From: Candidatus Microgenomatus sp. | GTDB taxonomy: Bacteria; Patescibacteriota; Minisyncoccia; UBA6257; GWB1-50-10 | Direction of reading: 5' to 3' | DNA length: 64,000 nucleotides | Assembly: GCA_020724805.1 (NCBI GenBank) | Contig: DYGI01000001.1 | Location: 389,152-453,151 of the forward strand | Shown: positions 3,763 through 54,645 of the stretch, in pieces | How the letters are laid out: each line of letters opens with the position of its first letter | Position numbering within the stretch: position 1 is the stretch's first letter | Program-made: the position numbers and the translations under genes | The notes under the pieces: generated by a model | Told to the model about the DNA's origin: nothing | Databases searched by the model: none | The model's input: the letters and a program-made list of their open reading frames with translations, nothing else

Positions 3763-4071
3763 CTAAAGCGCGAGTATGAGGAGCACCGCGAGCGTGATAA
3801 TGAGGAGGAAGCTCACCGTATAAACCGCAAGCGTCACCGCATCGGAACGTTTCCCTTCCATGTACCACGCGACCGGGCGGCCAAAGACCGCAAGTGCGAG
3901 AATCGCGGCCGAAGAAGAGAAGAGGAGCAAGAAGCCCATAGGCGCCACGATATCTCCCGCTTTGCCGGCGAACTGTTCCGCGCCGCTCATAATAGCGGCG
4001 ACAAGCGCCACATAACAGGATGCGATGGCGGCATTCCCGAGCGCGTAGAGCGCTATCTTGTTTTTATTCAT
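3763..4071 (-). CDS. small membrane protein (hypothetical)
   Basis: Three hydrophobic helices. Start at the internal Met (MNKNK); a TATGATATAAT-like -10 lies upstream on the minus strand. Confidence 0.45.
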   Translation of the reverse strand: MNKNKIALYALGNAAIASCYVALVAAIMSGAEQFAGKAGDIVAPMGFLLLFSSSAAILALAVFGRPVAWYMEGKRSDAVTLAVYTVSFLLIITLAVLLILAL

Positions 4072-4104
4072 ATGAAAAATTATATCATACAGGCACTTCA
4101 CCTC

Positions 4105-4246
4105 GCCCTTAATTATAGGCTGAAGGTACTGAGGTTTTACTTCGTCGTTCCTCCTCAGTACCTTCTTCGCTATTTATCCATCAGTGCCATAGGCCCTGAT
4201 GAACGAAGTGAAGAAGGGCTGCGGGGGCTGAACGATGTTCGAACCT
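4105..4246 (+). repeat. island-boundary element copy 1 (13-bp hairpin plus tRNA-Gln 3'-end-like core at 4216-4245)
   Basis: About 100 nt of homology, with indels, to 53260-53400 in inverse orientation. Reverse complement of the core reads GGTTCGAACATCGTTCAGCCCCCGCAGCCC, resembling a tRNA-Gln T-loop and acceptor 3' end. Confidence 0.7.
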
Positions 4247-4252
4247 ACTTTA

Positions 4253-4912
4253 TCACGTCGTTATGGTTCCGAACAGTGATTCTGAAGTCGCGATTTGAGC
4301 GAGAATGCTAGTGTGCAGTTTTTTCACAGCGCTCACTATACGATGATCGCCAACGTATTGTTTAACTTGAGCTCTCACTTTATGGATCAAATCGTTCGCG
4401 ATTCCGAAACGACTCCACATATTCAATTCATCGTCTAGCGTGAGAGTTTCCGGGTTTTTATAAAGATTTGCAATGCACTCATAGTATTCGCGCATAACCG
4501 CTTTAGGTTCACCGTTTGGGGTTTCAATATAGGTGAGTGAATCACGTGCTATTTGCATATCGAAGTTTCTTACGTCCTCGATATCTTGCAGTATCTTTAC
4601 CGCAGTTCTTTTTATCCACATTTCTTCTCCCTGGTCACGCATTCCTTCATCTATACCTGGTATTGTCTCACTGATAGCGCTCGCTTGAACATCATCGTAG
4701 AGAAGATGTGAAAACCATCCCTTGCGAAAATCGCTGGTTCTGAATGAAAGATCTGTTTGGTATCCCTTTGGGTGTGTGGCGAGTCTGTTAATTTTTGTCA
4801 CATATCGGCTATCTGGGTATATTGAGCCGGAAATGTACGCGTCAGCATCTTTGACGGAGAGTAGATCCTTAACATCAAGAGCAAACCTTATATGTGATCC
4901 TTGGAGCGCCAT
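4253..4912 (-). CDS. hypothetical protein (219 aa), island cargo
   Basis: Long ORF in AT-rich DNA; bracketed within 8-9 nt at each end by the direct repeats at 4216-4245 and 4921-4948. No recognisable motif. Confidence 0.5.
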   Translation of the reverse strand: MALQGSHIRFALDVKDLLSVKDADAYISGSIYPDSRYVTKINRLATHPKGYQTDLSFRTSDFRKGWFSHLLYDDVQASAISETIPGIDEGMRDQGEEMWIKRTAVKILQDIEDVRNFDMQIARDSLTYIETPNGEPKAVMREYYECIANLYKNPETLTLDDELNMWSRFGIANDLIHKVRAQVKQYVGDHRIVSAVKKLHTSILAQIATSESLFGTITT

Positions 4913-4920
4913 AAACTTTT

Positions 4921-4948
4921 TGCTGCGGGGCTTAAACGACGTTAGAAC
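4921..4948 (+). repeat. island-boundary element copy 2 (partial, core only)
   Basis: tgctgcggggcttaaacgacgttagaac, about 75% identical to 4216-4245. Its reverse complement ends CCCCGCAGCA, like the tRNA-Gln(CTG) 3' end. Confidence 0.6.
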
Positions 4949-5021
4949 TTATTTCCTTTCGACAAGTACCATTCATTAATAAAAATGGGTTCTACCCAAT
5001 TAGGGACATTGATTCTAATTA

Positions 5022-5528
5022 CTAAAAGACATAAATAACCTTTCCTATAATATCGTCTACCTGTTTAACGCCCAATATCGAATTCTCGTTATCACCTTTT
5101 TGGAACACCTCTCCATCGTTGAGATCAAAGCGTAAGATGGTGTCTGGTTTTATAATGTCCAACTCCGAAGCTGAAGAGTTTGGGAAAAGCGTTTTTTCTC
5201 CATTAACTGTGATAGTTTTATTTTCATCTATCACCACTTGATCGCCGGCGACACCGATAATCCTATGTATCCAGGGATCATAAACTGTTTCCTTCGTTAG
5301 CTTGTTTATAAGTGGCGTACCAAACATTACTATGTCGTTTCGTCTGACATTTGATAATAAGTAATGGATTCTACTTACCATCACGTAGCTTCCCTTATCA
5401 ATGGTTGGTTCCATTGAATCTCCTGCTACGTAGTGTATTGGGAAAAAAATTCTCACAAATAATCCAAGAAGAAAGAGAACCCCAATTACGTAGAAGGTGA
5501 ATCTTTTCCAAGGCTTTTTGGTCTGCAT
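5022..5528 (-). CDS. lepB: signal peptidase I (S26 family)
   Basis: N-terminal TM, catalytic Ser motif GDSMEPT, RIIGVAGD box. Confidence 0.8.
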   Translation of the reverse strand: MQTKKPWKRFTFYVIGVLFLLGLFVRIFFPIHYVAGDSMEPTIDKGSYVMVSRIHYLLSNVRRNDIVMFGTPLINKLTKETVYDPWIHRIIGVAGDQVVIDENKTITVNGEKTLFPNSSASELDIIKPDTILRFDLNDGEVFQKGDNENSILGVKQVDDIIGKVIYVF

Positions 5529-5549
5529 TGCTAGTTCTGCTTTATTTGA

Positions 5550-5819
5550 TTATAGGAAAAAATACGAAACGAAAGCCGAAAAGCTTGCCAGTAAATAACC
5601 AACTCCAGCAATGAAATTGATTGCCCGATTATCTTGGTTGAGAGTATCGAGGTATGCGTTAAAATCATTGATAAATTCTTCAATACCAAGTGGCACACCA
5701 TTAAAGGTTTTTACCCCTCCTTTATTTGAAAAGGGAGCGATTTTTTGAAAACTTCTCCAGAAATGATAAATCGCCAAAGCAAGAAATGAAAATGTAAATA
5801 TTATCCAAATGTACTTCAT
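5550..5819 (-). CDS. small membrane protein (hypothetical)
   Basis: Internal start MKYIWIIF; two TM helices. Confidence 0.4.
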   Translation of the reverse strand: MKYIWIIFTFSFLALAIYHFWRSFQKIAPFSNKGGVKTFNGVPLGIEEFINDFNAYLDTLNQDNRAINFIAGVGYLLASFSAFVSYFFL

Positions 5820-5972
5820 GGCTGGGAGGCTTGGGAGCGAACAACGCTCGTATTCACTCGCGTTCACAAAACCCTCGGTTTTGTGTCCACTATCGTTCAA
5901 TCCGACACGGAAGGGACACAAAAGGTTTCCCTTCCGACCCATCCCTCACTTAAATCGTCAGATTTAAGTCCA

Positions 5973-6002
5973 GATTCATGGCTTCAAAGGCCGCTGTCCT
6001 AT
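5973..6002. repeat. tRNA-Gln fragment (anticodon-arm region) duplicate
   Basis: agattcatggcttcaaaggccgctgtcctat matches tRNA positions 6068-6100 with one mismatch. Confidence 0.7.
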
Positions 6003-6046
6003 AGACAAGGGAGTGAGGAAATGGAAAGCGTCACTCCTGCGCACCG

Positions 6047-6117
6047 CTGGGAGGCTTGGGATCGAACCAAGATTCACGGCTTCAAAGGCCGCTGTCCTAC
6101 CATTAGACGACCTCCCA
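6047..6117 (-). tRNA. tRNA-Gln (anticodon TTG)
   Basis: Cloverleaf: acceptor TGGGAGG/CCTCCCA, D-arm GTCT/GGAC, anticodon loop CTTTGAA, T-arm CTTGG-TTCGATC-CCAAG, discriminator G. U1-A72 is typical of bacterial tRNA-Gln. Confidence 0.85.
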
Positions 6118-6193
6118 GCGGTGCGCACGAATGTGTAATTGTCGAGGAACGTTTTCTATTTCCGAGCGAGCGCCGTATGTATGGCGAAACCAT

Positions 6194-6212
6194 ACCATTA
6201 GACGACCTCCCA
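6194..6212. repeat. tRNA-Gln 5'-end fragment duplicate
   Basis: accattagacgacctccca identical to tRNA positions 6099-6117. Confidence 0.7.
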
Positions 6213-6237
6213 ATGCCATTTCTTTATACTGTAACTG

Positions 6238-6861
6238 ATGGAATTCGCAACTTGGCTTATGGTGGAACTTCCGGTGATAGGGGAATGGGTGCTCGCGCTC
6301 GCTGCGGGAGCCATCTATTTTTCTTTTTCTCGTCGTGCTCCCGCGCATAACGTAACGCGTATGCGGCAAGTATTCATCGCGGCCGTCGCGGTGATTTTCG
6401 GGGTCGCCGCGCTTTCCACGTTCCTGCAGTATTCGGTTTGGAAAGCCGACCAATTCTCACAAAACTTCCTTCCCCCGCATCAGTCGATTCTGTATTTTGC
6501 AAAGTATGCCGGCACGCACTTCTGGCTCACCCCGGTCCTTTCGCTCGTCATTGCCGGCGCGTTTTTTTTGTTCCTCCACGTGCTCGCGCGAAAAAACGAA
6601 AGGTTCTTCGAAGAGGGTGAAATTGAGCTGGGCGCTCTCGCCGCTTTGCTTGCAGGATGGCCTGGGTTCGTGATTTTTCTTCCCGCTGTCTTTCTTGCAG
6701 TCGTCGTCATTTCCGGGGCAAAACTGATGCTGCAAAAAAGCGCTTACACCACGCTAGGACTTCCGCTTCTTGTCGGACTTTTTGTGGCGTTGGTGTGGGG
6801 AGACGCCACCCTCCGTCTCGTGGGACTTGGGCTTCTCGCGGTTATTCCCGGCGCGCGCTAA
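6238..6861 (+). CDS. polytopic membrane protein, possibly divergent prepilin-peptidase-like (A24)
   Basis: 6-7 TM helices. EIELGALAALLAGWPG resembles the GxGDVKLLAALGAWLG block of PilD-type peptidases, but the Asp is replaced, so the call is weak. Confidence 0.3.
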   Translation: MEFATWLMVELPVIGEWVLALAAGAIYFSFSRRAPAHNVTRMRQVFIAAVAVIFGVAALSTFLQYSVWKADQFSQNFLPPHQSILYFAKYAGTHFWLTPVLSLVIAGAFFLFLHVLARKNERFFEEGEIELGALAALLAGWPGFVIFLPAVFLAVVVISGAKLMLQKSAYTTLGLPLLVGLFVALVWGDATLRLVGLGLLAVIPGAR

Positions 6862-49053: not shown

Positions 49054-49124
49054 TGCGGGATCGTCTAATGGTAGGACGTCTGGCTCTGAACCAGAAAATT
49101 GGGGTTCGATTCCCTGTCCCGCAG
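49054..49124 (+). tRNA. tRNA-Gln (anticodon CTG)
   Basis: Acceptor TGCGGGA/TCCCGCA, D-arm GTCT/GGAC, anticodon loop CTCTGAA, T-loop TTCGATT, discriminator G. Confidence 0.8.
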
Positions 49125-49261
49125 CATTAGGACTAAATAGTCCTAAAATACCCACCGGAGAGGTGGGGTTCGCGTTTTAGTACGACTCCGTGTACGTTTT
49201 TTCCCTTTTCGGCATTCCTACCCCCGTTATATTCTCCTCTCGGCACTCTTAGAGTCTGAAG

Positions 49262-49477
49262 GTGAACAGGTTCCCGTACCAAATCACCAATACGCTTAGA
49301 GAACATAGGAAGGCTGTAGGATTGAGTCAGCAGAAGGTGGCGGCTGCCTTGGGGATACAGGACAACACTCTTATTTCTCGATGGGAGCGGGGCGCAGCTC
49401 TCCCCTCTCTCGTGAGCGTATACCGACTCATGGAGCTCTATAGGGCTACGTTTGAGGAGTTGTTTCCGAAGGTCTAG
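49262..49477 (+). CDS. XRE-family helix-turn-helix transcriptional regulator
   Basis: LSQQKVAAALGIQDNTLISRWERG is a classic Cro/C1 HTH. Confidence 0.75.
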   Translation: MNRFPYQITNTLREHRKAVGLSQQKVAAALGIQDNTLISRWERGAALPSLVSVYRLMELYRATFEELFPKV

Positions 49478-49593: not shown

Positions 49594-50280
49594 ATGACGG
49601 AAAAAATCTTCGTTCAAAGATTAAAAAAGATTTTTAAGCAGGACGGATACCTCGTTAGAGAGGAAATCGGTGTGGGGCACGGTATAGCAGATTTAGTTTT
49701 AATTAGGGGCAGCAGGATCAACCAACGACACGTCGAGCTAAGAAAAAGCTATCGCCAGTTGTCTCCTCTGCTTAAGGAAGAGTATTTCCGCACGCTAAAT
49801 GTAATACCCGATCAGCCAGGGAAAGCATCGCTAGATCTAATTGTAAAAAAAACCCACTTATCCAAGCCTTATCTGAAATACTCCATCCTTAGAACGCTTG
49901 AGAAAAAGGGATATATCAAGTCGAACGGAGAGAACCATTATTTTAAGATTAACGGTTGGGTTCCACTAACAAGCGAACTAATTGCAGTGGAAGCAAAACT
50001 AAAGGACTGGAAAAGAGGACTCATCCAAGCGAATCGATATAAGATCTTTGCAAACAAAGTTTATTTGGCAATTCCTTCCTCTCATGCTCACCTCGTGGAC
50101 AGAAAGATGTTGAGAAAACATGGAATCGGACTAATCACATTAGATATAGTGAGCGGGAAGAAAAATATCCCACTCCGTGCAAGTCATAATATACCCGCGA
50201 ATTTACCTCGCAGTAACTTTGCAGTTGAACATTTCTGGGGAAAACAGATCTACAAACGAGCAGAGGCGCGGCCAATCTAG
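49594..50280 (+). CDS. hypothetical protein, possible PD-(D/E)xK-fold nuclease with central wHTH
   Basis: GHGIADLVLI ... IAVEAKLKDW fits a D...ExK arrangement; weak. Confidence 0.35.
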   Translation: MTEKIFVQRLKKIFKQDGYLVREEIGVGHGIADLVLIRGSRINQRHVELRKSYRQLSPLLKEEYFRTLNVIPDQPGKASLDLIVKKTHLSKPYLKYSILRTLEKKGYIKSNGENHYFKINGWVPLTSELIAVEAKLKDWKRGLIQANRYKIFANKVYLAIPSSHAHLVDRKMLRKHGIGLITLDIVSGKKNIPLRASHNIPANLPRSNFAVEHFWGKQIYKRAEARPI

Positions 50281-50714
50281 GATATTTTCGAAAACGCTTG
50301 AGTAAACTTTTCGGGAGATATTGTGCGCACGTCTCCAAACCTTCCTATATCAAGTAAATCTCTATCGCGGGTGATGATAATTTTTGCGGCGCAAGTCCTC
50401 GCAACTCTTACGTATTCATCATCGTCAGGGTCCCTCTGAATGTAGCGTGCTAACTTCTCAGTGGAATTCGGCTCTACCATATTTACGAATGCTCTATAGT
50501 CCAAGATAATTTTTTCAGGACTAAATATTTGCCTTTTCAGATATTTCTGAAGCCTACCAATCTGAATTTTTTCGCAGAACTCTTGGTAGGTCGCCGAACT
50601 GCCGAATATTAATATTCTTTTTTCTAGCGCCCAATTAATAATTCTTCTTGTTGGGCCAGGCGTCCCCAACATACCCGAAATGAGAATGTTCGTATCCGGC
50701 ACTACCTTGATCAT
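50277..50714 (-). CDS. PIN-domain nuclease (TIGR00305-like toxin family)
   Basis: N-terminal VVPDTNILISGML and conserved acidic residues (..ARTCAAKIIITRDRDLL). Start overlaps the stop of the TGT-like gene by 4 nt. Confidence 0.7.
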   Translation of the reverse strand: MIKVVPDTNILISGMLGTPGPTRRIINWALEKRILIFGSSATYQEFCEKIQIGRLQKYLKRQIFSPEKIILDYRAFVNMVEPNSTEKLARYIQRDPDDDEYVRVARTCAAKIIITRDRDLLDIGRFGDVRTISPEKFTQAFSKIS

Positions 50715-51880
50715 GAGTCAAGCTCGGATAGTAACGTTTTCAGTTCGTCATCATCACCAGGAAACTCCCATGTCTTTGCCAAATCTAGAACAGCCTTCCA
50801 ACGAGGAAGGTAGGCTGTCTTTACCCCAATGGCGCGAGACCGCAACTTCGAAGTTAACTGAATAGCATCATCGACCCGCTTAGACAGGACACTTATCCGT
50901 TTCTCTTTCGTTAAATTTTGAAGAGATTGAACACTTGATAATCTCGTGTGAAGAAAGTGTAGCTTTTTAGCCGCCACTTCTTTGGGGTATGACCCACCAC
51001 ACGCCGGACAATTACAGGAGTATTTTATCTTCTTCAGATCTTGATCGTTGAGATAATCAAAAATCTCCGGCACGTATGTTTTTTCGATTCGCTTACTCCA
51101 TCCCTTAGGCGTACTTTGAAGATTCTTCACGACGAACATTTCTCCCGCTGCCAGACCGCTTCCAAAGCCGCTTGCACCTACTGCACAAAGAACCTCACCA
51201 AATGGACCGATTTTATTGGCAAAGACCACACTCCCCTCCGAGAGACGGAATGCTAAGCGGGCAAATTCTAAGAGTGAGTCTTGGTCGGCACTTTCACAAT
51301 CTAGATCATTTATCACAACTATATAACCGTCTAACGAGTCACGAAAATCCTCTTTATACCTATCAATGATGTAATTGATGACCGTGGGTCGATTAAGAAT
51401 AGAGCTTCCCAATTTCAGCATCGCAAAAACCGGAATTTCTTGTTTTGTCTCCTGAAGATAGCGCAACGTTTCTGACAGCATGGAAATATTAACACCAAAT
51501 TTTAGGTCGTCGGTATCTTCACAAAAAAAATAAGGAGCTATCATTACTGATGCCTGTTTACGGAACTGGTCTTGTACGGCAATCTGAACAATCTTCTCCT
51601 TACGAAAACCGGGGTCACTGTAAACTTTTTCCGCGTTAACTTCATTTGGATATCCCAGTCTTTTAAAATTCTCCCCTTCACTCGCATCCTTGAATAGCAG
51701 GATGTCTGTCGAGGGGTCTATGATAAATACGTCTGATATCGCCCTTAATTTCTCAGCGACTTTTGGACGCCACTCCGAATGTCTTGTATCCATAAGCACG
51801 GCAGGAAAGCGGAATCCTAGTGATTCCAAGTGTCCGTCCTGTGCATTCGGCAAAAAGATTGGTGTTTTCGGTATCAACAT
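50711..51880 (-). CDS. tRNA-guanine-transglycosylase (TGT) superfamily-like zinc-binding protein (DpdA/TGT-like); catalytic Asp possibly missing
   Basis: N-terminal KTPIFLPN resembles TGT ETPCFMPVGT. LDGYIVVINDL resembles FDGYAVGGLAVGE. C-terminal CNCPAC-(13 aa)-HFLH resembles the TGT zinc site CDCYTC...YLHHL. The GIDMFDCV nucleophile region aligns to GEMFVVKN. Confidence 0.45.
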   Translation of the reverse strand: MLIPKTPIFLPNAQDGHLESLGFRFPAVLMDTRHSEWRPKVAEKLRAISDVFIIDPSTDILLFKDASEGENFKRLGYPNEVNAEKVYSDPGFRKEKIVQIAVQDQFRKQASVMIAPYFFCEDTDDLKFGVNISMLSETLRYLQETKQEIPVFAMLKLGSSILNRPTVINYIIDRYKEDFRDSLDGYIVVINDLDCESADQDSLLEFARLAFRLSEGSVVFANKIGPFGEVLCAVGASGFGSGLAAGEMFVVKNLQSTPKGWSKRIEKTYVPEIFDYLNDQDLKKIKYSCNCPACGGSYPKEVAAKKLHFLHTRLSSVQSLQNLTKEKRISVLSKRVDDAIQLTSKLRSRAIGVKTAYLPRWKAVLDLAKTWEFPGDDDELKTLLSELDS

Positions 51881-52005
51881 TCTTCGTTCTTTCTATTAGA
51901 GAAGATTGTCGGTACAAAATATACAATAAAATTCCTTGCTTGGAAAGCGTTATGTATCGCCGCTATTTAGAACACCCCCTCGGTAGGGGGTGTTCTGTCT
52001 GGCGC

Positions 52006-52275
52006 TTAGGTATCTTTGCTGATCGCCTGTATGGTTTCGGCTGCTGGGCCTAAAGCGTTTACTATCTCTATTTTTTCCTTTCCATAATGATCCCTCAAGC
52101 CCTTTAAGAGTTCGTCAGCATAAGAAGGCGTTAGGACCTCTACGCCAGAAAAGTCTAAAACAATATTCTCCTTGTCCGCTGAGCCGTTGATAATCTGTCG
52201 CAGACGCAAAAGCGCCTCCCTACCGGTAGGTCTACCATTCAGCACAGTTCCAAATTTTTGCATCATTACCGTCAT
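52006..52275 (-). CDS. STAS-domain protein (anti-sigma-factor-antagonist-like, DUF4325-type)
   Basis: ...ENIVLDFSGVEVLTPSYADELL... is the typical STAS beta-alpha core; 89 aa. Confidence 0.55.
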   Translation of the reverse strand: MTVMMQKFGTVLNGRPTGREALLRLRQIINGSADKENIVLDFSGVEVLTPSYADELLKGLRDHYGKEKIEIVNALGPAAETIQAISKDT

Positions 52276-52281
52276 ATGATT

Positions 52282-53124
52282 TCACTTGTATTCTATCACA
52301 ACTGACGCCAGCGTCCCTAAGATACGATTCACTACGGATGACTTTTGCCCTTGTTCATCCACGACTACTAATCCCTCCCCAGAATGCACTCTGACTTTAC
52401 CATTAAACTTGTTAATTGTCCAGTCCTGAACGAGCCTCAACCCATTGCCGCGTTTCTCCCCCACTCTTCCCGTTACACCTGTTAGTCCAAGCTGTATCGC
52501 ATCGACATCGTTAGCTAGATTAGGATCACGAACCTTTAAGGAACCGAGGAAGCCAATCCCCGGGTCTGCAATGGCAATCTCAATGAACTTCTTCTCAGGA
52601 TAATTCTGTGCGACCATGATCGCCCCGCCAACATTCGTTGGCCACACTCCTTCATTGTGATCAAAAACATTGTTTCCGAGCTCACCGATAAGCGAGGTAA
52701 CCCGTTGTTCATCTTCCCCACGCAGGCCGAAGTTCCTGAGCATTAAGCGGATATTAGAAGAAAGACGCGCATTGAATTCATCCCTGTAGGTGCAGTGGAG
52801 TATCTCGTGTAGGTTTAGGTTCGGATGCTCGACCATTGGAAGAGAGTTCAATGGCGCAAGAAACGCACCGTATCCCATTGCGTCCATAAACTGAGGGAAG
52901 TGAATTCTCTTCAAATACGTCAAGACATCGTGGTGCTTAGGCAATACGAGTTCTTTCTTTGGTTGATCTTTTAGCTCAATCGCCCTTAAACAAATCATGC
53001 CAACGCCCCAGGGCTCGCACCACCCCGCTTTACTCAAATCAATAACATCCCCGTTAAACCATCCAGCATCCCGGCTGTAAATCTCACCAAATCCAAGTCT
53101 CATGATGGCTAAAGTATAAGCCAT
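52282..53124 (-). CDS. GHKL-family ATPase (RsbW/SpoIIAB-like kinase fold) with N-terminal extension
   Basis: N-box ELGNNVFDHN, G1 DPGIGF, G2 GLTGVTGRVGEKRGNGL. Pairs with the adjacent STAS gene. Confidence 0.55.
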   Translation of the reverse strand: MAYTLAIMRLGFGEIYSRDAGWFNGDVIDLSKAGWCEPWGVGMICLRAIELKDQPKKELVLPKHHDVLTYLKRIHFPQFMDAMGYGAFLAPLNSLPMVEHPNLNLHEILHCTYRDEFNARLSSNIRLMLRNFGLRGEDEQRVTSLIGELGNNVFDHNEGVWPTNVGGAIMVAQNYPEKKFIEIAIADPGIGFLGSLKVRDPNLANDVDAIQLGLTGVTGRVGEKRGNGLRLVQDWTINKFNGKVRVHSGEGLVVVDEQGQKSSVVNRILGTLASVVIEYK

Positions 53125-53259: not shown

Positions 53260-53400
53260 GGTTCGAACATCGTTCAGGCCCCGCAGCCCTTCTTCGCTTC
53301 GCTCATCAGGGCCTATGGCATCTCTTGAGCGAAGAAGGCACTGAGGAATCCTGAGTATGAACGAAGGACGACGAAGTGATAAAATTCGCTTGTGAGTCAC
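53260..53400 (-). repeat. island-boundary element copy 3 (tRNA-Gln 3'-end-like core 53260-53292 plus conserved hairpins)
   Basis: GGTTCGAACATCGTTCAGGCCCCGCAGCCC then ccttcttcgc...gaagaagg hairpin. About 93% identical over 64 nt to the reverse complement of 4190-4246. Confidence 0.7.
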
Positions 53401-53640
53401 TTCGTTTATATTCTCACATGTGCCGATGGTTCACTGTACGTGGGATGTACCAATAACCTTGAACGTAGAATAAAGCAACACAACGATTCTAAGTGGGGCG
53501 CACACTATACAAAACTAAGACGCCCCGTAGCACTTGTGCACCAAGAAGAATTTCCAACCTTACGTGAGGCGCGACGACGAGAAACTGAAATCAAAGGTTG
53601 GCGCCATGAGAAGAAACTAACACTCATTAATAAGACCTAA
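53392..53640 (+). CDS. GIY-YIG nuclease domain protein
   Basis: FVYILTC...SLYVGCTNNLERRIKQH; GTG start; low GC. Confidence 0.7.
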   Translation: MSHFVYILTCADGSLYVGCTNNLERRIKQHNDSKWGAHYTKLRRPVALVHQEEFPTLREARRRETEIKGWRHEKKLTLINKT

Positions 53641-53685: not shown

Positions 53686-54645
53686 ATGTTTATCGACGAC
53701 GTTACCATAAGGGTTTTCGCTGGAAATGGCGGGAAGGGCGCAGTTGCGTTCAATAAAAACCTCATGTCCTTGGGCCCCGCGGGCGGGAGCGGCGGCAAGG
53801 GAGGCAGTGTGTATGCCGAGGGCGTTTCCAACCTGAGCGCCCTTCAGCAATTCAGATACGAAAAATCCATCCAGGCGGAGCACGGCATGGACGGTCGCGG
53901 CCAATTTAAGGATGGCCACGATGGAAAAGACCTTACGCTCAAAGTTCCGGTGGGCACTATTATTCACAACCTCACGAACGGACACGATGTGGAAATTACG
54001 AAGATAGGCGAACGCGTGCTTCTCGCGAAAGGTGGCAATGGAGGCAAAGGGAATTTTCACTTCCGCTCGCCGAAGCTCACCACGCCAAAACGTTTCCAAC
54101 CGGGACTTCCGGGAGAAACGTTCCAATTCCGGCTTGAGCTGAAACTTACCGCGGACATCGGGTTCGTAGGACTTCCTAATGTTGGGAAATCCAGTTTACT
54201 GAACGTCCTCACGAACGCCAAAAGCAAGGTGGCGAACTATCCCTTTACCACACTTGAACCAAACCTCGGCGCGTACTACGAACTCATTCTCGCTGATATC
54301 CCGGGCTTGATTGAGGGCTCGTCGCGCGGCAAGGGGCTCGGCATCAAATTCCTCCGCCACATTGAGCGGACGCGCATTCTTTTTCACTTCATTTCGGCAG
54401 AATCCCCTTCTCCGAAAAAAGATTACGACACCATCCGTAAAGAGCTGGGGAATCACAATAAAAAACTTCTGGAGAAACCGGAATATCTTTTCCTCACGAA
54501 AAGCGATGAAGCGTCGCCCGCGGAATTAAAAAAGAAGCTCGCGGTGTTAAAGAAGATTAATCGCGCCACTATGGCGATTTCGCTCTATGACGACGAGAGC
54601 ATACATGCGGTCAAAAAACTCCTCAACAAAATAAAGAGCGAATGA
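53686..54645 (+). CDS. obg: GTPase Obg
   Basis: Gly-rich Obg fold (GGKGGSV, GGNGGKGN) then G domain GLPNVGKSSLL, DIPGLIEG. Confidence 0.9.
   Translation: MFIDDVTIRVFAGNGGKGAVAFNKNLMSLGPAGGSGGKGGSVYAEGVSNLSALQQFRYEKSIQAEHGMDGRGQFKDGHDGKDLTLKVPVGTIIHNLTNGHDVEITKIGERVLLAKGGNGGKGNFHFRSPKLTTPKRFQPGLPGETFQFRLELKLTADIGFVGLPNVGKSSLLNVLTNAKSKVANYPFTTLEPNLGAYYELILADIPGLIEGSSRGKGLGIKFLRHIERTRILFHFISAESPSPKKDYDTIRKELGNHNKKLLEKPEYLFLTKSDEASPAELKKKLAVLKKINRATMAISLYDDESIHAVKKLLNKIKSE

Follow-up and report, generated by a model that had tools for sequence, protein, structure and literature searches.

The window, the 64,000-nt stretch of DNA analysed here, contains a low-GC island next to a tRNA-Gln gene: the GC content is 0.43-0.47 over 49-53 kb compared with about 0.54 in the flanks. 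All coordinates below are positions within the whole window, and X389 and Y228 stand for proteins of 389 and 228 aa. The features of the island are:

49054-49125, plus strand: tRNA-Gln(ctg), found by ARAGORN, at the edge of the low-GC island
49262-49477, plus strand: XRE-family HTH regulator (HTH_31 and HTH_3 at E about 1e-10), upstream of Y228
49594-50280, plus strand: Y228 gene, a 228-aa ORF, third gene of the cassette and convergent with the PIN gene
50277-50714, minus strand: PIN_3/TIGR00305 nuclease gene, 145 aa
50711-51880, minus strand: X389 gene, 389 aa, first gene of the conserved cassette
51918-51946, minus strand: promoter-like site TTTCCA-17-TATATT from a consensus scan, about 40 nt upstream of the X389 start
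51969-51996, minus strand: GC-rich hairpin, 10 nt past the STAS stop, within the 125-nt spacer ahead of X389
52006-52275, minus strand: DUF4325 (STAS-like) gene, 89 aa, partner of the GHKL gene and not of the cassette
52282-53124, minus strand: GHKL-type ATPase or kinase gene, 280 aa, outside the cassette, in a separate neighbouring module
53392-53640, plus strand: GIY-YIG gene, a flanking gene

According to our ORF calls the four minus-strand genes (GHKL, STAS-like, 389-aa and PIN) lie exactly where a first-pass annotation of this DNA had placed them, and the low-GC island, the flanking XRE and GIY-YIG genes and the 4-nt overlap of the X389 stop with the PIN start are all as it described. Its description of the four genes as a tight operon holds only for each half: the GHKL and STAS-like genes are 6 nt apart and X389 and PIN overlap, but 125 nt separate the STAS-like gene from X389. 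A further 4-nt overlap, between the convergent 3' end of Y228 and the PIN stop, had escaped that annotation. The hairpin in the spacer (MFE -26.1 kcal/mol, z -5.3; 0 of 200 shuffles equally stable) is possibly a transcript boundary or a stability element between two modules, and because its U-tail is weak we can only infer a role as terminator. The promoter-like site is weak evidence, since such sites are no commoner in this region than in shuffles. An att-like direct repeat of the tRNA-Gln 3' end was looked for and none was found.

Genes that travel together

The first-pass annotation had joined the GHKL, STAS, TGT-like and PIN genes into one candidate module, and had named their co-occurrence elsewhere as one of the checks. 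We surveyed 37 related loci with 31-69% identity to X389. PIN comes after X389 in every one of them, and X389, PIN and Y228 have identical order and orientation in 36, the remaining contig being truncated. GHKL or DUF4325 relatives occur in none of these loci, even by profile HMMs at E ≤ 10. The reciprocal test gives the same picture: in 67 of 68 viral loci the GHKL gene is immediately followed by a DUF4325-like gene, the two overlapping by 4 nt in 64 cases, and the triad families occur in 0 of the 68. The conserved unit is a three-gene cassette of X389, PIN and Y228. The last of these had been listed as a PD-(D/E)xK-like flanking gene; the nuclease family was correctly recognised, but the gene is no mere flank, since it belongs to the cassette in 36 of 37 loci. 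The GHKL and STAS-like genes are a separate, unrelated pair that is carried by phages too.

A single four-gene system, in which a partner-switching pair regulates the TGT-like and PIN genes, would account for the shared strand and the shared low-GC island, and a link between DUF4325 and PIN has a precedent elsewhere: the PIN.4 subfamily is reported to be transcriptionally coupled to DUF4325 genes (PMC5499597). However, the PIN protein here belongs to PIN_3/TIGR00305 and not to the PF01850 PIN.4 subfamily, and the spacer with its strong hairpin and promoter-like site parts the two gene pairs. The four-gene system is largely refuted because co-occurrence is lacking in both directions, and we consider it extremely improbable. 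The case also carries a lesson of method, as same-strand neighbours in one island proved to be two unrelated modules.

The N, G1 and G2 boxes reported for the GHKL protein are conserved in a three-way alignment and invariant relative to phage homologues: E148..N152..H156 in the N box, D187-x-G189-I190 in G1 and R225-G226-x-G228 in G2. The protein matches phrog_3364 at E 2.5e-22, whereas the match to HATPase_c_2 (E 0.012) is below the cut-off, and its phage homologues are annotated as 'ATP-binding protein' or 'histidine kinase'. The STAS-like assignment of the second gene is borne out by a match to DUF4325 (PF14213; E 1e-9), and a DUF4325-like gene follows the GHKL gene directly in Bacteroides phage BF1-TP2 as well. 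With the boxes, the STAS-type partner and the adjacency in the viral loci, the two genes probably form a self-contained partner-switch-like pair, in line with the first-pass annotation. A GHKL ATPase/kinase with N, G1 and G2 boxes beside a small STAS-like protein recalls RsbW-RsbV and SpoIIAB-SpoIIAA. Unlike in these, the small partner here is DUF4325, which is not a canonical STAS family, phages carry the two genes as a unit of their own, and the window's island shows no obvious ORF for a sigma factor or PP2C.

The XRE regulator has no relatives in the other cassette loci, where small ORFs at the same position lack an HTH; it belongs to the local context and not to the conserved cassette. The Chryseolinea kinase variant described below does, however, again have an HTH_3 gene.

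The TGT-fold protein and its nuclease partners

X389 is the founding member of an unannotated family. It is a (beta/alpha)8 barrel that is structurally nearer to TGT-family proteins than to generic TIM barrels, and the first-pass annotation was right about the TGT fold and the CxCx2C...H site; the likeness does not extend to a significant sequence match to the TGT family. X389 gives no Pfam match at E ≤ 1, PF01702 included, and neither the single protein nor a profile finds a sequence match to solved TGT chains in the PDB. The CxCxxC...H cluster (C289, C291, C294, H308), a predicted zinc site, sits after the last barrel strand, and its C289-x-C291-x-x-C294 part aligns with C302, C304 and C307 of E. 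coli Tgt (EcTgt). Over 146 superfamily members these four residues are conserved at 94, 77, 90 and 98%, respectively, though one subclade and the Chryseolinea homologue retain only the first Cys and the His. The Cys-to-His spacing is 13 residues and not 22-25, and H308 aligns with the TGT 'LHHL' motif and not with H333.

The catalytic residues of the TGT family are three aspartates: the general acid/base at the end of beta3 (Ec D89, Zm D102, DpdA D95), the base-recognition Asp (Ec D143, Zm D156, DpdA D130, Cap10 D122) and the nucleophile (Ec D264, Zm D280, DpdA D256, Cap10 D248). The mapping of X389 onto these positions comes from low-probability hhalign profile alignments to EcTgt (1-13%), which are mutually consistent and anchored on the Cys motif. 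In two such low-confidence runs D55 pairs with EcTgt D89; at this position 87% of the 146 members have Asp and 10% Asn, and the Asn variants speak against its being an essential acid/base. EcTgt D143 ('FDEC') falls, at the same low confidence, in a 5-residue deletion of X389, and the nearby E121 and D122 are conserved in just 44% and 43% of the superfamily. The nucleophile Asp had been noted as missing, and the low-confidence alignment agrees: Ec D264 is placed at V250, a variable position with Ser in 38%, Asp in 14% and Asn in 11% of members. E247, which is invariant in the X389 family and which 81% of the superfamily keep as an acidic residue (Glu or Asp), aligns with D261 and not with the nucleophile. 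Two of the three TGT catalytic aspartates thus appear to be lost. With D55 and the invariant E247 near the catalytic face, X389 could equally be an active enzyme with altered chemistry.

Such an enzyme could be the modifying arm of a restriction-modification-like system, with a base-exchange or glycosylase-type activity, D55 and E247 replacing the TGT Asp pair, that marks self DNA or RNA while Y228 cuts unmarked DNA. The putative deletion of the base-recognition Asp and the variable nucleophile position speak against this, within the low confidence of the alignment, as do the relatives that lack most of the zinc cluster. It would also leave the PIN or kinase third component unexplained. Moreover, whereas dpdA genes cluster with preQ0 genes, tblastn with the E. 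coli QueC, QueD, QueE and Tgt proteins gave no match at E ≤ 0.01 in the window and 57 loci (459 kb), a search that very divergent QueC-like genes could escape because the queries were single sequences; Que genes and Tgt are likewise absent from the top neighbour families of the cassette. We find the restriction-modification-like reading rather unlikely.

The fourth gene had been called a PIN toxin, and its place in a toxin-antitoxin (TA)-associated PIN family is confirmed by matches above the cut-offs to TIGR00305 (67.9 bits, cut-off 29.15; E 9e-19) and Pfam PIN_3 (41.9 bits, cut-off 27; E 2e-10). Its acidic residues D7, E45, D95, D98, D99 and D117 are kept in at least 95% of 28 orthologues. 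Y228 is a RecB-type PD-(D/E)xK nuclease of the restriction-endonuclease-like fold, in which an inserted MarR-like winged helix separates the D motif from ExK; its D...ExK...QxxxY motif is conserved, the nuclease motifs being invariant among homologues. Both proteins keep intact active sites and are hence predicted to be active nucleases.

In PADLOC-DB v2 neither X389 nor PIN has a match and Y228 has only a marginal one to the CasR wHTH (E 0.005); because PADLOC models none of the three proteins, the cassette is tied to no validated system. No earlier description of it was found in Pfam, NCBIfam, PADLOC, PHROGs or a literature search. The TGT-fold branch represented by the cassette comprises about 520 representative proteins and has no Pfam, NCBIfam, PADLOC or PHROG model. 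The hosts of the cassette are mostly uncultured Patescibacteria or MAGs.

Distant relatives keep the pairing of a TGT-like protein with a Y228-type nuclease, while PIN is swapped for a fused or adjacent Ser/Thr kinase, or neither is present. Specifically, the gene after a kinase-TGT-like fusion encodes a Y228 homologue (hhalign 99.7%, E 5e-27); one locus has a split kinase, a TGT-like gene and a convergent Y-like gene (L048); and Chryseolinea has a kinase, a remote TGT-like gene (97.6%), a convergent Y-like gene, PP2C and HTH. Another locus has PIN, a short Y-like gene and a TGT-like gene in different order (L045), and in L054 a bare TGT-like gene is convergent with a Y-like gene beside an integrase, with neither PIN nor kinase. 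Distant TGT-like forms also adjoin Xre_MbcA_ParS_C antitoxin-type genes.

Proposed function

Directly upstream of cassettes we find a type I R-M operon, type III R-M genes and Vsr, and nearby a Bil system, S24 peptidases and integrases; this association is descriptive and drawn from about 17 non-redundant loci with useful flanks. The X389 family is absent from IMG/VR viral contigs, which is neutral as to defence. We propose that the cassette is a conflict system, most likely one of anti-phage or anti-plasmid defence. Taken as a whole, the explanation that two independent mobile modules lie side by side by chance, one of them a candidate defence cassette with a remodelled TGT-fold sensor, is in our view about as likely as not.

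In the sensor reading, the remodelled X389 would have given up guanine exchange. It would instead bind a nucleic acid or a base, flipped or free, in its barrel pocket and zinc subdomain, and as a sensor or adaptor would control an interchangeable effector, a PIN RNase here and a protein kinase elsewhere. Y228, the constant partner, would be the component that binds and cuts DNA and might also act in autoregulation. A more specific version is speculative and, in our judgement, rather unlikely: a new class of immunity in which a disarmed TGT/DpdA-like barrel reads flipped or hypermodified bases, such as the 7-deazaguanines that phages install with DpdA to evade restriction, and licenses a dedicated wHTH-PD-(D/E)xK DNase together with an interchangeable abortive effector, either a PIN RNase or a Ser/Thr kinase. 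If true, the TGT fold would have a third role, this one non-enzymatic, beside base exchange in tRNA or DNA and protein conjugation by Cap10.

The gene order itself may be taken as evidence against a sensor cassette, as a large protein followed by an overlapping PIN is also the classic antitoxin-toxin order. Alternatively, then, the cassette is an addiction module in which X389 neutralises the PIN toxin, Y228 is a winged-helix regulator and the whole stabilises its mobile DNA without sensing invaders. TIGR00305 is named 'putative toxin-antitoxin system toxin component', the 4-nt overlap of the upstream gene with the PIN start is in the style of type II TA, the cassette is mobile and found in varied contexts with integrases, and the Xre_MbcA_ParS_C neighbours of the distant forms point the same way. 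However, the known antitoxins of the TIGR00305/PIN_3 family are small DNA-binding proteins, whereas PIN is partnered here by a barrel of 389 aa that has a zinc cluster and conserved residues in its pocket. Neutralisation of PIN cannot be the core function, since TGT-like and Y228 genes persist without PIN in the kinase variants and in the bare pair of L054, and a pure repressor would have no need of the invariant nuclease motifs of Y228. We therefore rate an addiction module as unlikely, though deserving some weight. TA and abortive-infection defence are not mutually exclusive.

The cassette might instead serve the mobile element itself, by control of excision or recombination or by homing, and the likeness of Y228 to XisH-like proteins could be read in this way. 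This likeness reflects just the PD-(D/E)xK fold, as NucS, restriction enzymes and Can2 score equally; integrases are missing from the window's island and from many cassette loci, and neither the TGT-fold protein nor the swap of PIN and kinase is explained. We hold such a function to be very unlikely.

Comparison with known systems

Of the known systems, loci with VapC-type PIN_3/TIGR00305 toxins are alike in having a bona fide TIGR00305 PIN with an intact acidic site, coupled translationally to the upstream gene. They differ in that the upstream partner here is a TGT-fold protein of 389 aa and no small DNA-binding antitoxin, and in that a third, convergent nuclease gene is obligatory, so that this is not a two-gene unit. 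QTRT2, the non-catalytic eukaryotic TGT subunit, is a housekeeping paralogue that forms a heterodimer with the catalytic QTRT1. A catalytic TGT partner is lacking from the cassette, and no tgt gene was found in the window or the loci.

DpdA is the DNA-guanine transglycosylase of the Dpd 7-deazaguanine restriction-modification system. It has three invariant active-site Asp residues and a CxCx2Cx22H site, DpdB and DpdC are its partners, and its gene is clustered with those for preQ0 synthesis (PMC10164549). In contrast, X389 appears to be without two of the three Asp, has a His spacing of x13 and no Que genes nearby, and pairs with PIN or a kinase and with a wHTH nuclease. Cap10, the TGT-family enzyme of type IV CBASS, is remodelled for nucleobase-protein conjugation. 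It retains the catalytic Asp/His pair as well as D73, S74, D122 and K154, which read the base, and its partners are a CD-NTase and the QueC-like Cap9 (bioRxiv 10.1101/2025.04.06.647259). In the cassette neither these residues nor these partners were found, and linked 7-deazaguanine genes or a QueC-like partner, the hallmark of Dpd, phage DpdA, Cap9-Cap10 and Qat, were not found here.

If the cassette is a conflict system, genome-reduced Patescibacteria carry elaborate mobile conflict cassettes; if it acts in defence, it would represent a new sensor logic and a candidate explanation for the detection of base-modified invaders. It is also tractable, the cassette being just 2.3 kb and the kinase variant occurring in the cultured Chryseolinea lacunae. 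To our knowledge the TGT fold was long known for tRNA base exchange only, and DpdA in DNA modification and Cap10 in CBASS nucleobase-protein conjugation are recent signs that conflict systems recruit it. To these the cassette would add a further, far more divergent TGT-fold branch, with a dedicated nuclease and with PIN and kinase interchangeable.

Gene content beside the tRNA-Gln

The first-pass annotation had placed four minus-strand genes, for a GHKL ATPase, a STAS protein, a TGT-like (tRNA-guanine transglycosylase-like) zinc protein and a PIN nuclease, in a low-GC island that starts at a tRNA-Gln. All four ORFs lie exactly where it put them, and the tRNA and the island are both found (GC 0.43-0.47 over 49-53 kb, against ~0.54 around it). 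With respect to att sites, the 3' end of the tRNA-Gln has no direct repeat. The genes are:

49054-49125, tRNA-Gln(ctg)
49594-50280, plus strand, Y228, a 228-aa ORF converging on the PIN gene
50277-50714, minus strand, PIN nuclease, 145 aa (PIN_3, E 2e-10; TIGR00305, 67.9 bits against a cut-off of 29)
50711-51880, minus strand, X389, a 389-aa TGT-fold protein whose stop overlaps the PIN start by 4 nt
52006-52275, minus strand, STAS-like protein, 89 aa (DUF4325, E 1e-9 in a profile search)
52282-53124, minus strand, GHKL protein, 280 aa (phrog_3364, E 2.5e-22; Pfam HATPase_c_2, E 0.012)

The PIN and STAS-like assignments thus have profile support. For the GHKL protein the Pfam match is weak, but the assignment is upheld by the phrog_3364 match, by phage homologues labelled ATP-binding protein or histidine kinase, and by N, G1 and G2 boxes that are invariant in the alignment; a comparison with PDB sequences gave no significant match. 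Its N-terminal ~120 aa are possibly STAS-like themselves ('DLSKAGW..PWG').

What does not survive comparison is the proposal that these four genes form a single module. Genomes and metagenomes yielded 37 loci that encode a relative of X389 (31-69% identity), and in every one a PIN_3 gene follows, usually with a 4-nt overlap. In 36 of them a gene of ~225 aa, the counterpart of Y228, runs towards PIN so that the two 3' ends overlap, and the contig of the 37th stops too soon. Y228, which had been treated as a flank, is therefore part of the cassette. GHKL or DUF4325 relatives occur in none of the 37 loci (tblastn, and small profile HMMs at E<=10). Conversely, a DUF4325-like gene lies directly downstream of GHKL in 67 of 68 viral contigs with a GHKL homologue, 64 times with a 4-nt overlap, and none of the 68 encodes relatives of X389, PIN or Y228; between them these contigs carry just 10 different GHKL proteins, most of which belong to a single lineage of Bacteroides phages. 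The two pairs are also separated in the window by a 125-nt spacer, which holds a 12-bp GC-rich hairpin (51969-51996, -26.1 kcal/mol, z -5.3) and a promoter-like site. Because co-occurrence fails in both directions and the spacer intervenes, we conclude that two modules adjoin here, and a joint four-gene system retains next to no credence. We are nearly certain of the revised cassette of X389, PIN and Y228, which spans 2.3 kb. As a conserved fourth component we considered the neighbouring XRE and GIY-YIG genes, neither of which has a relative in the other loci, and an HTH gene beside Y228; the small ORFs that precede Y228 genes elsewhere contain no HTH.

GHKL and DUF4325 make up a self-contained unit of two genes (window 52006-53124; also loci L043, L044 and L057-L124). 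A single lineage of Bacteroides phages carries it commonly (68 IMG/VR contigs), and in Bacteroides phage BF1-TP2 the 'ATP-binding protein' and 'DUF4325 domain-containing protein' are annotated as a pair. In Gordonia phage Phishy a 75-aa gene follows the GHKL homologue near an integrase and an immunity repressor, a typical place for prophage accessory genes. Another PIN subfamily, PIN.4 (PF01850), is reported to be transcriptionally coupled to DUF4325 genes (PMC5499597, Table 1). Given the co-occurrence data, we regard the proximity of DUF4325 and PIN in the window as coincidence.

Elsewhere in the window there is a second low-GC patch (3800-6117, GC 0.39-0.44), which adjoins the other tRNA-Gln (ttg, 6046-6117, minus strand) and may be another small island. 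Its ORFs encode proteins of 219 aa, of 168 aa (with the signal-peptidase/S24-like motif 'GDSMEPT') and of 130 aa, the last membrane-like. The Obg protein of the window (53686-54645) clusters at 90% with ObgE of 'Candidatus Brennerbacteria', and the host is probably a member of the Patescibacteria with a reduced genome.

Architectures and neighbourhoods of the cassette

An exhaustive profile search gave 520 representatives of the wider X389 superfamily at E<=1e-3. Leaving aside the query set, 23 of the best 148 listed are ~670-690 aa long; in the two full-length proteins of this size that were scanned, the X389-like domain is fused to a Ser/Thr kinase at its N-terminal side (Pkinase, E ~1e-55). 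Each fusion locus examined has an adjacent gene for a Y228-type nuclease; related loci are L039-L042, L048 and L052-L053, and the proteins include P0191 and P0198. We found no description of such a kinase-TGT-fold fusion.

Architectures of loci encoding X389-like proteins (Y, Y228-type nuclease)
1: TGT-like gene followed by PIN, with Y facing them; 37 loci
2: fusion of kinase and TGT-like domain and, after it in the same orientation, a clear Y228 homologue; hhalign 99.7%, E 5e-27
2, convergent form: fusion and Y228 homologue facing each other; Nomurabacteria
3: separate kinase, TGT-like gene, convergent Y-like gene; L048
3, Chryseolinea lacunae: adds a PP2C phosphatase and HTH_3; TGT-like protein remote (97.6%, E 2.6e-12), most of the Cys cluster lost
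4: 222-aa gene, PIN_3, short Y-like gene, TGT-like gene, all on one strand; L045, L046
5: TGT-like gene convergent with a Y-like gene, nothing else; L054, beside an integrase, with archaeal-type regulators in the context

All five architectures share a TGT-like protein and a Y nuclease, which thus form the constant core; PIN and the kinase are interchangeable or dispensable. The Chryseolinea lacunae locus (L051; GCA_016735595.1, JAERRB010000005.1, 119072-131734) belongs to a cultured member of the Bacteroidota. There an HTH_3 regulator, a PP2C phosphatase and a Y-like nuclease converge on the TGT-like protein, itself preceded by the Pkinase gene, and this kinase variant offers a tractable organism for experiments. 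In L045 (270-938) and L046 the unannotated 222-aa gene before PIN is not Y228-like and is perhaps an additional component; these loci have a Y-like gene shortened to ~130 aa. The distant TGT-like forms P0258 and P0231 adjoin Xre_MbcA_ParS_C antitoxin-type genes (L047, 1747-1932; L056, 356-1371), on contigs so short that a Y-like gene may lie beyond their ends.

Cassette hosts include Patescibacteria, Ignavibacteriales, Gammaproteobacteria MAGs and Bacteroidota, and the neighbourhoods are mobile and rich in restriction-modification (R-M) genes. Directly upstream of the cassette, L007 has a complete type I R-M operon, L016 a type III Res gene, L018 both Mod and Res of type III, and L035 Vsr. The closest homologue (69% identity; L001, Ignavibacteriales MAG JACRMQ010000006.1) lies beside an integrase and directly downstream of a Bil-type ubiquitin-like defence operon (BilD_N/ThiF, Prok-JAB, BilB-like) with an S24 peptidase (4108-6799). 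The families met most often in the 144 neighbouring ORFs include phage integrase (6), DNA methylases, ResIII, HsdS, restriction-endonuclease domain, S24 peptidase and recombinase. None of the IMG/VR contigs encodes the triad. We consider a function in maintaining mobile elements very improbable.

The two nucleases and a possible role

In the Y228 family E24, D33, E133-x-K135 and Q145 are invariant and Y149 of QxxxY almost so, a set that reads as the RecB-type PD-(D/E)xK signature. The structural model (pLDDT 94.5) matches the PD-(D/E)xK nucleases XisH-like 2okf, NucS, PaqCI, AF1548 and Can2, and its inserted domain matches MarR-type winged helices. We dropped the NCBIfam 'sce7726 family' as an assignment because its matches to Y228 are sub-threshold (E 0.002-0.007; cut-off 70 bits) and the distant X389 relatives match no NCBIfam family. 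In PIN, the acidic residues D7, E45, D95, D98, D99 and D117 are present in 95% or more of the 28 orthologues compared. Since both proteins retain their motifs, both are predicted to be active nucleases.

We give roughly even chances to the overall explanation of a defence or conflict cassette with a remodelled TGT-fold protein, and the case for a role in defence is itself finely balanced. The TGT-fold protein would bind nucleic acid or a base and control an exchangeable effector; Y228 would be a DNA-directed nuclease and possibly a regulator. A sensor mechanism for X389 is offered tentatively and may well prove wrong. The pairing with a PIN nuclease could also be that of a toxin-antitoxin or addiction module; PIN can be replaced by a kinase or be missing, and we judge such a module unlikely.

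X389 compared with TGT-fold enzymes

No family model in Pfam, NCBIfam, PADLOC or PHROGs matches X389, and phmmer and hmmsearch revealed no sequence link to TGT in Pfam, NCBIfam or the PDB. Against E. coli Tgt, family or superfamily profiles reach an hhalign probability of just 1-13%, so that residue mapping from these alignments is of low confidence; we used them for mapping only, because they are mutually consistent and fit the barrel register of the fold and the Cys anchor. Specifically, D55 (in 'IIDPST') would pair with the general acid/base D89, the 'DGY' block with 'DGYAVGG', and C289, C291 and C294 with C302, C304 and C307, while the base-recognition residue D143 would fall in a deletion. 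E247-M-F-V250 stands opposite D261-M-F-D264, so the nucleophile position would be V250, which is variable and lies three residues after an invariant E247. Two catalytic Asp residues of TGT thus appear to be gone. What the first-pass annotation had deduced about this protein from sequence alone was right.

Across 146 superfamily members D55 is Asp in 87% and Asn in 10%, the putative zinc cluster is well conserved (C289 94%, C291 77%, C294 90%, H308 98%), and P56, T58, Q105, P116, Y269 and W361 are also among the best-conserved positions. In a Paceibacterota subclade of the PIN-linked family (P0022 and P0024-P0027 in the family alignment) CxCxxC has given way to a motif in which the first Cys alone survives, plus K305 and H308, suggesting that some members of the family may not need zinc binding or may have a substitute for it.

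A rival reading is an R-M-like system in which X389 is an active enzyme. The residue map points the other way, tblastn detects no relatives of QueC, QueD, QueE or Tgt in the 459 kb of window and loci, and we think such a system distinctly unlikely. A literature search of partial coverage (TGT-like proteins with PIN, defence or kinase; DpdA-like; DUF4325) returned no description of the X389 family or the cassette, and an earlier computational mention may exist. The published hallmarks of TGT and DpdA are three Asp residues and a CxCx2Cx22H site (PMC10164549), and Cap10 retains a catalytic Asp/His pair together with base-reading residues. Set against these, the residue map of X389 argues for a new branch of the fold with a remodelled catalytic site, outside the TGT, DpdA and Cap10 enzyme families. 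We rate the cassette as a modular defence-island type assembled from known folds, in which the new part is this branch of the TGT fold.
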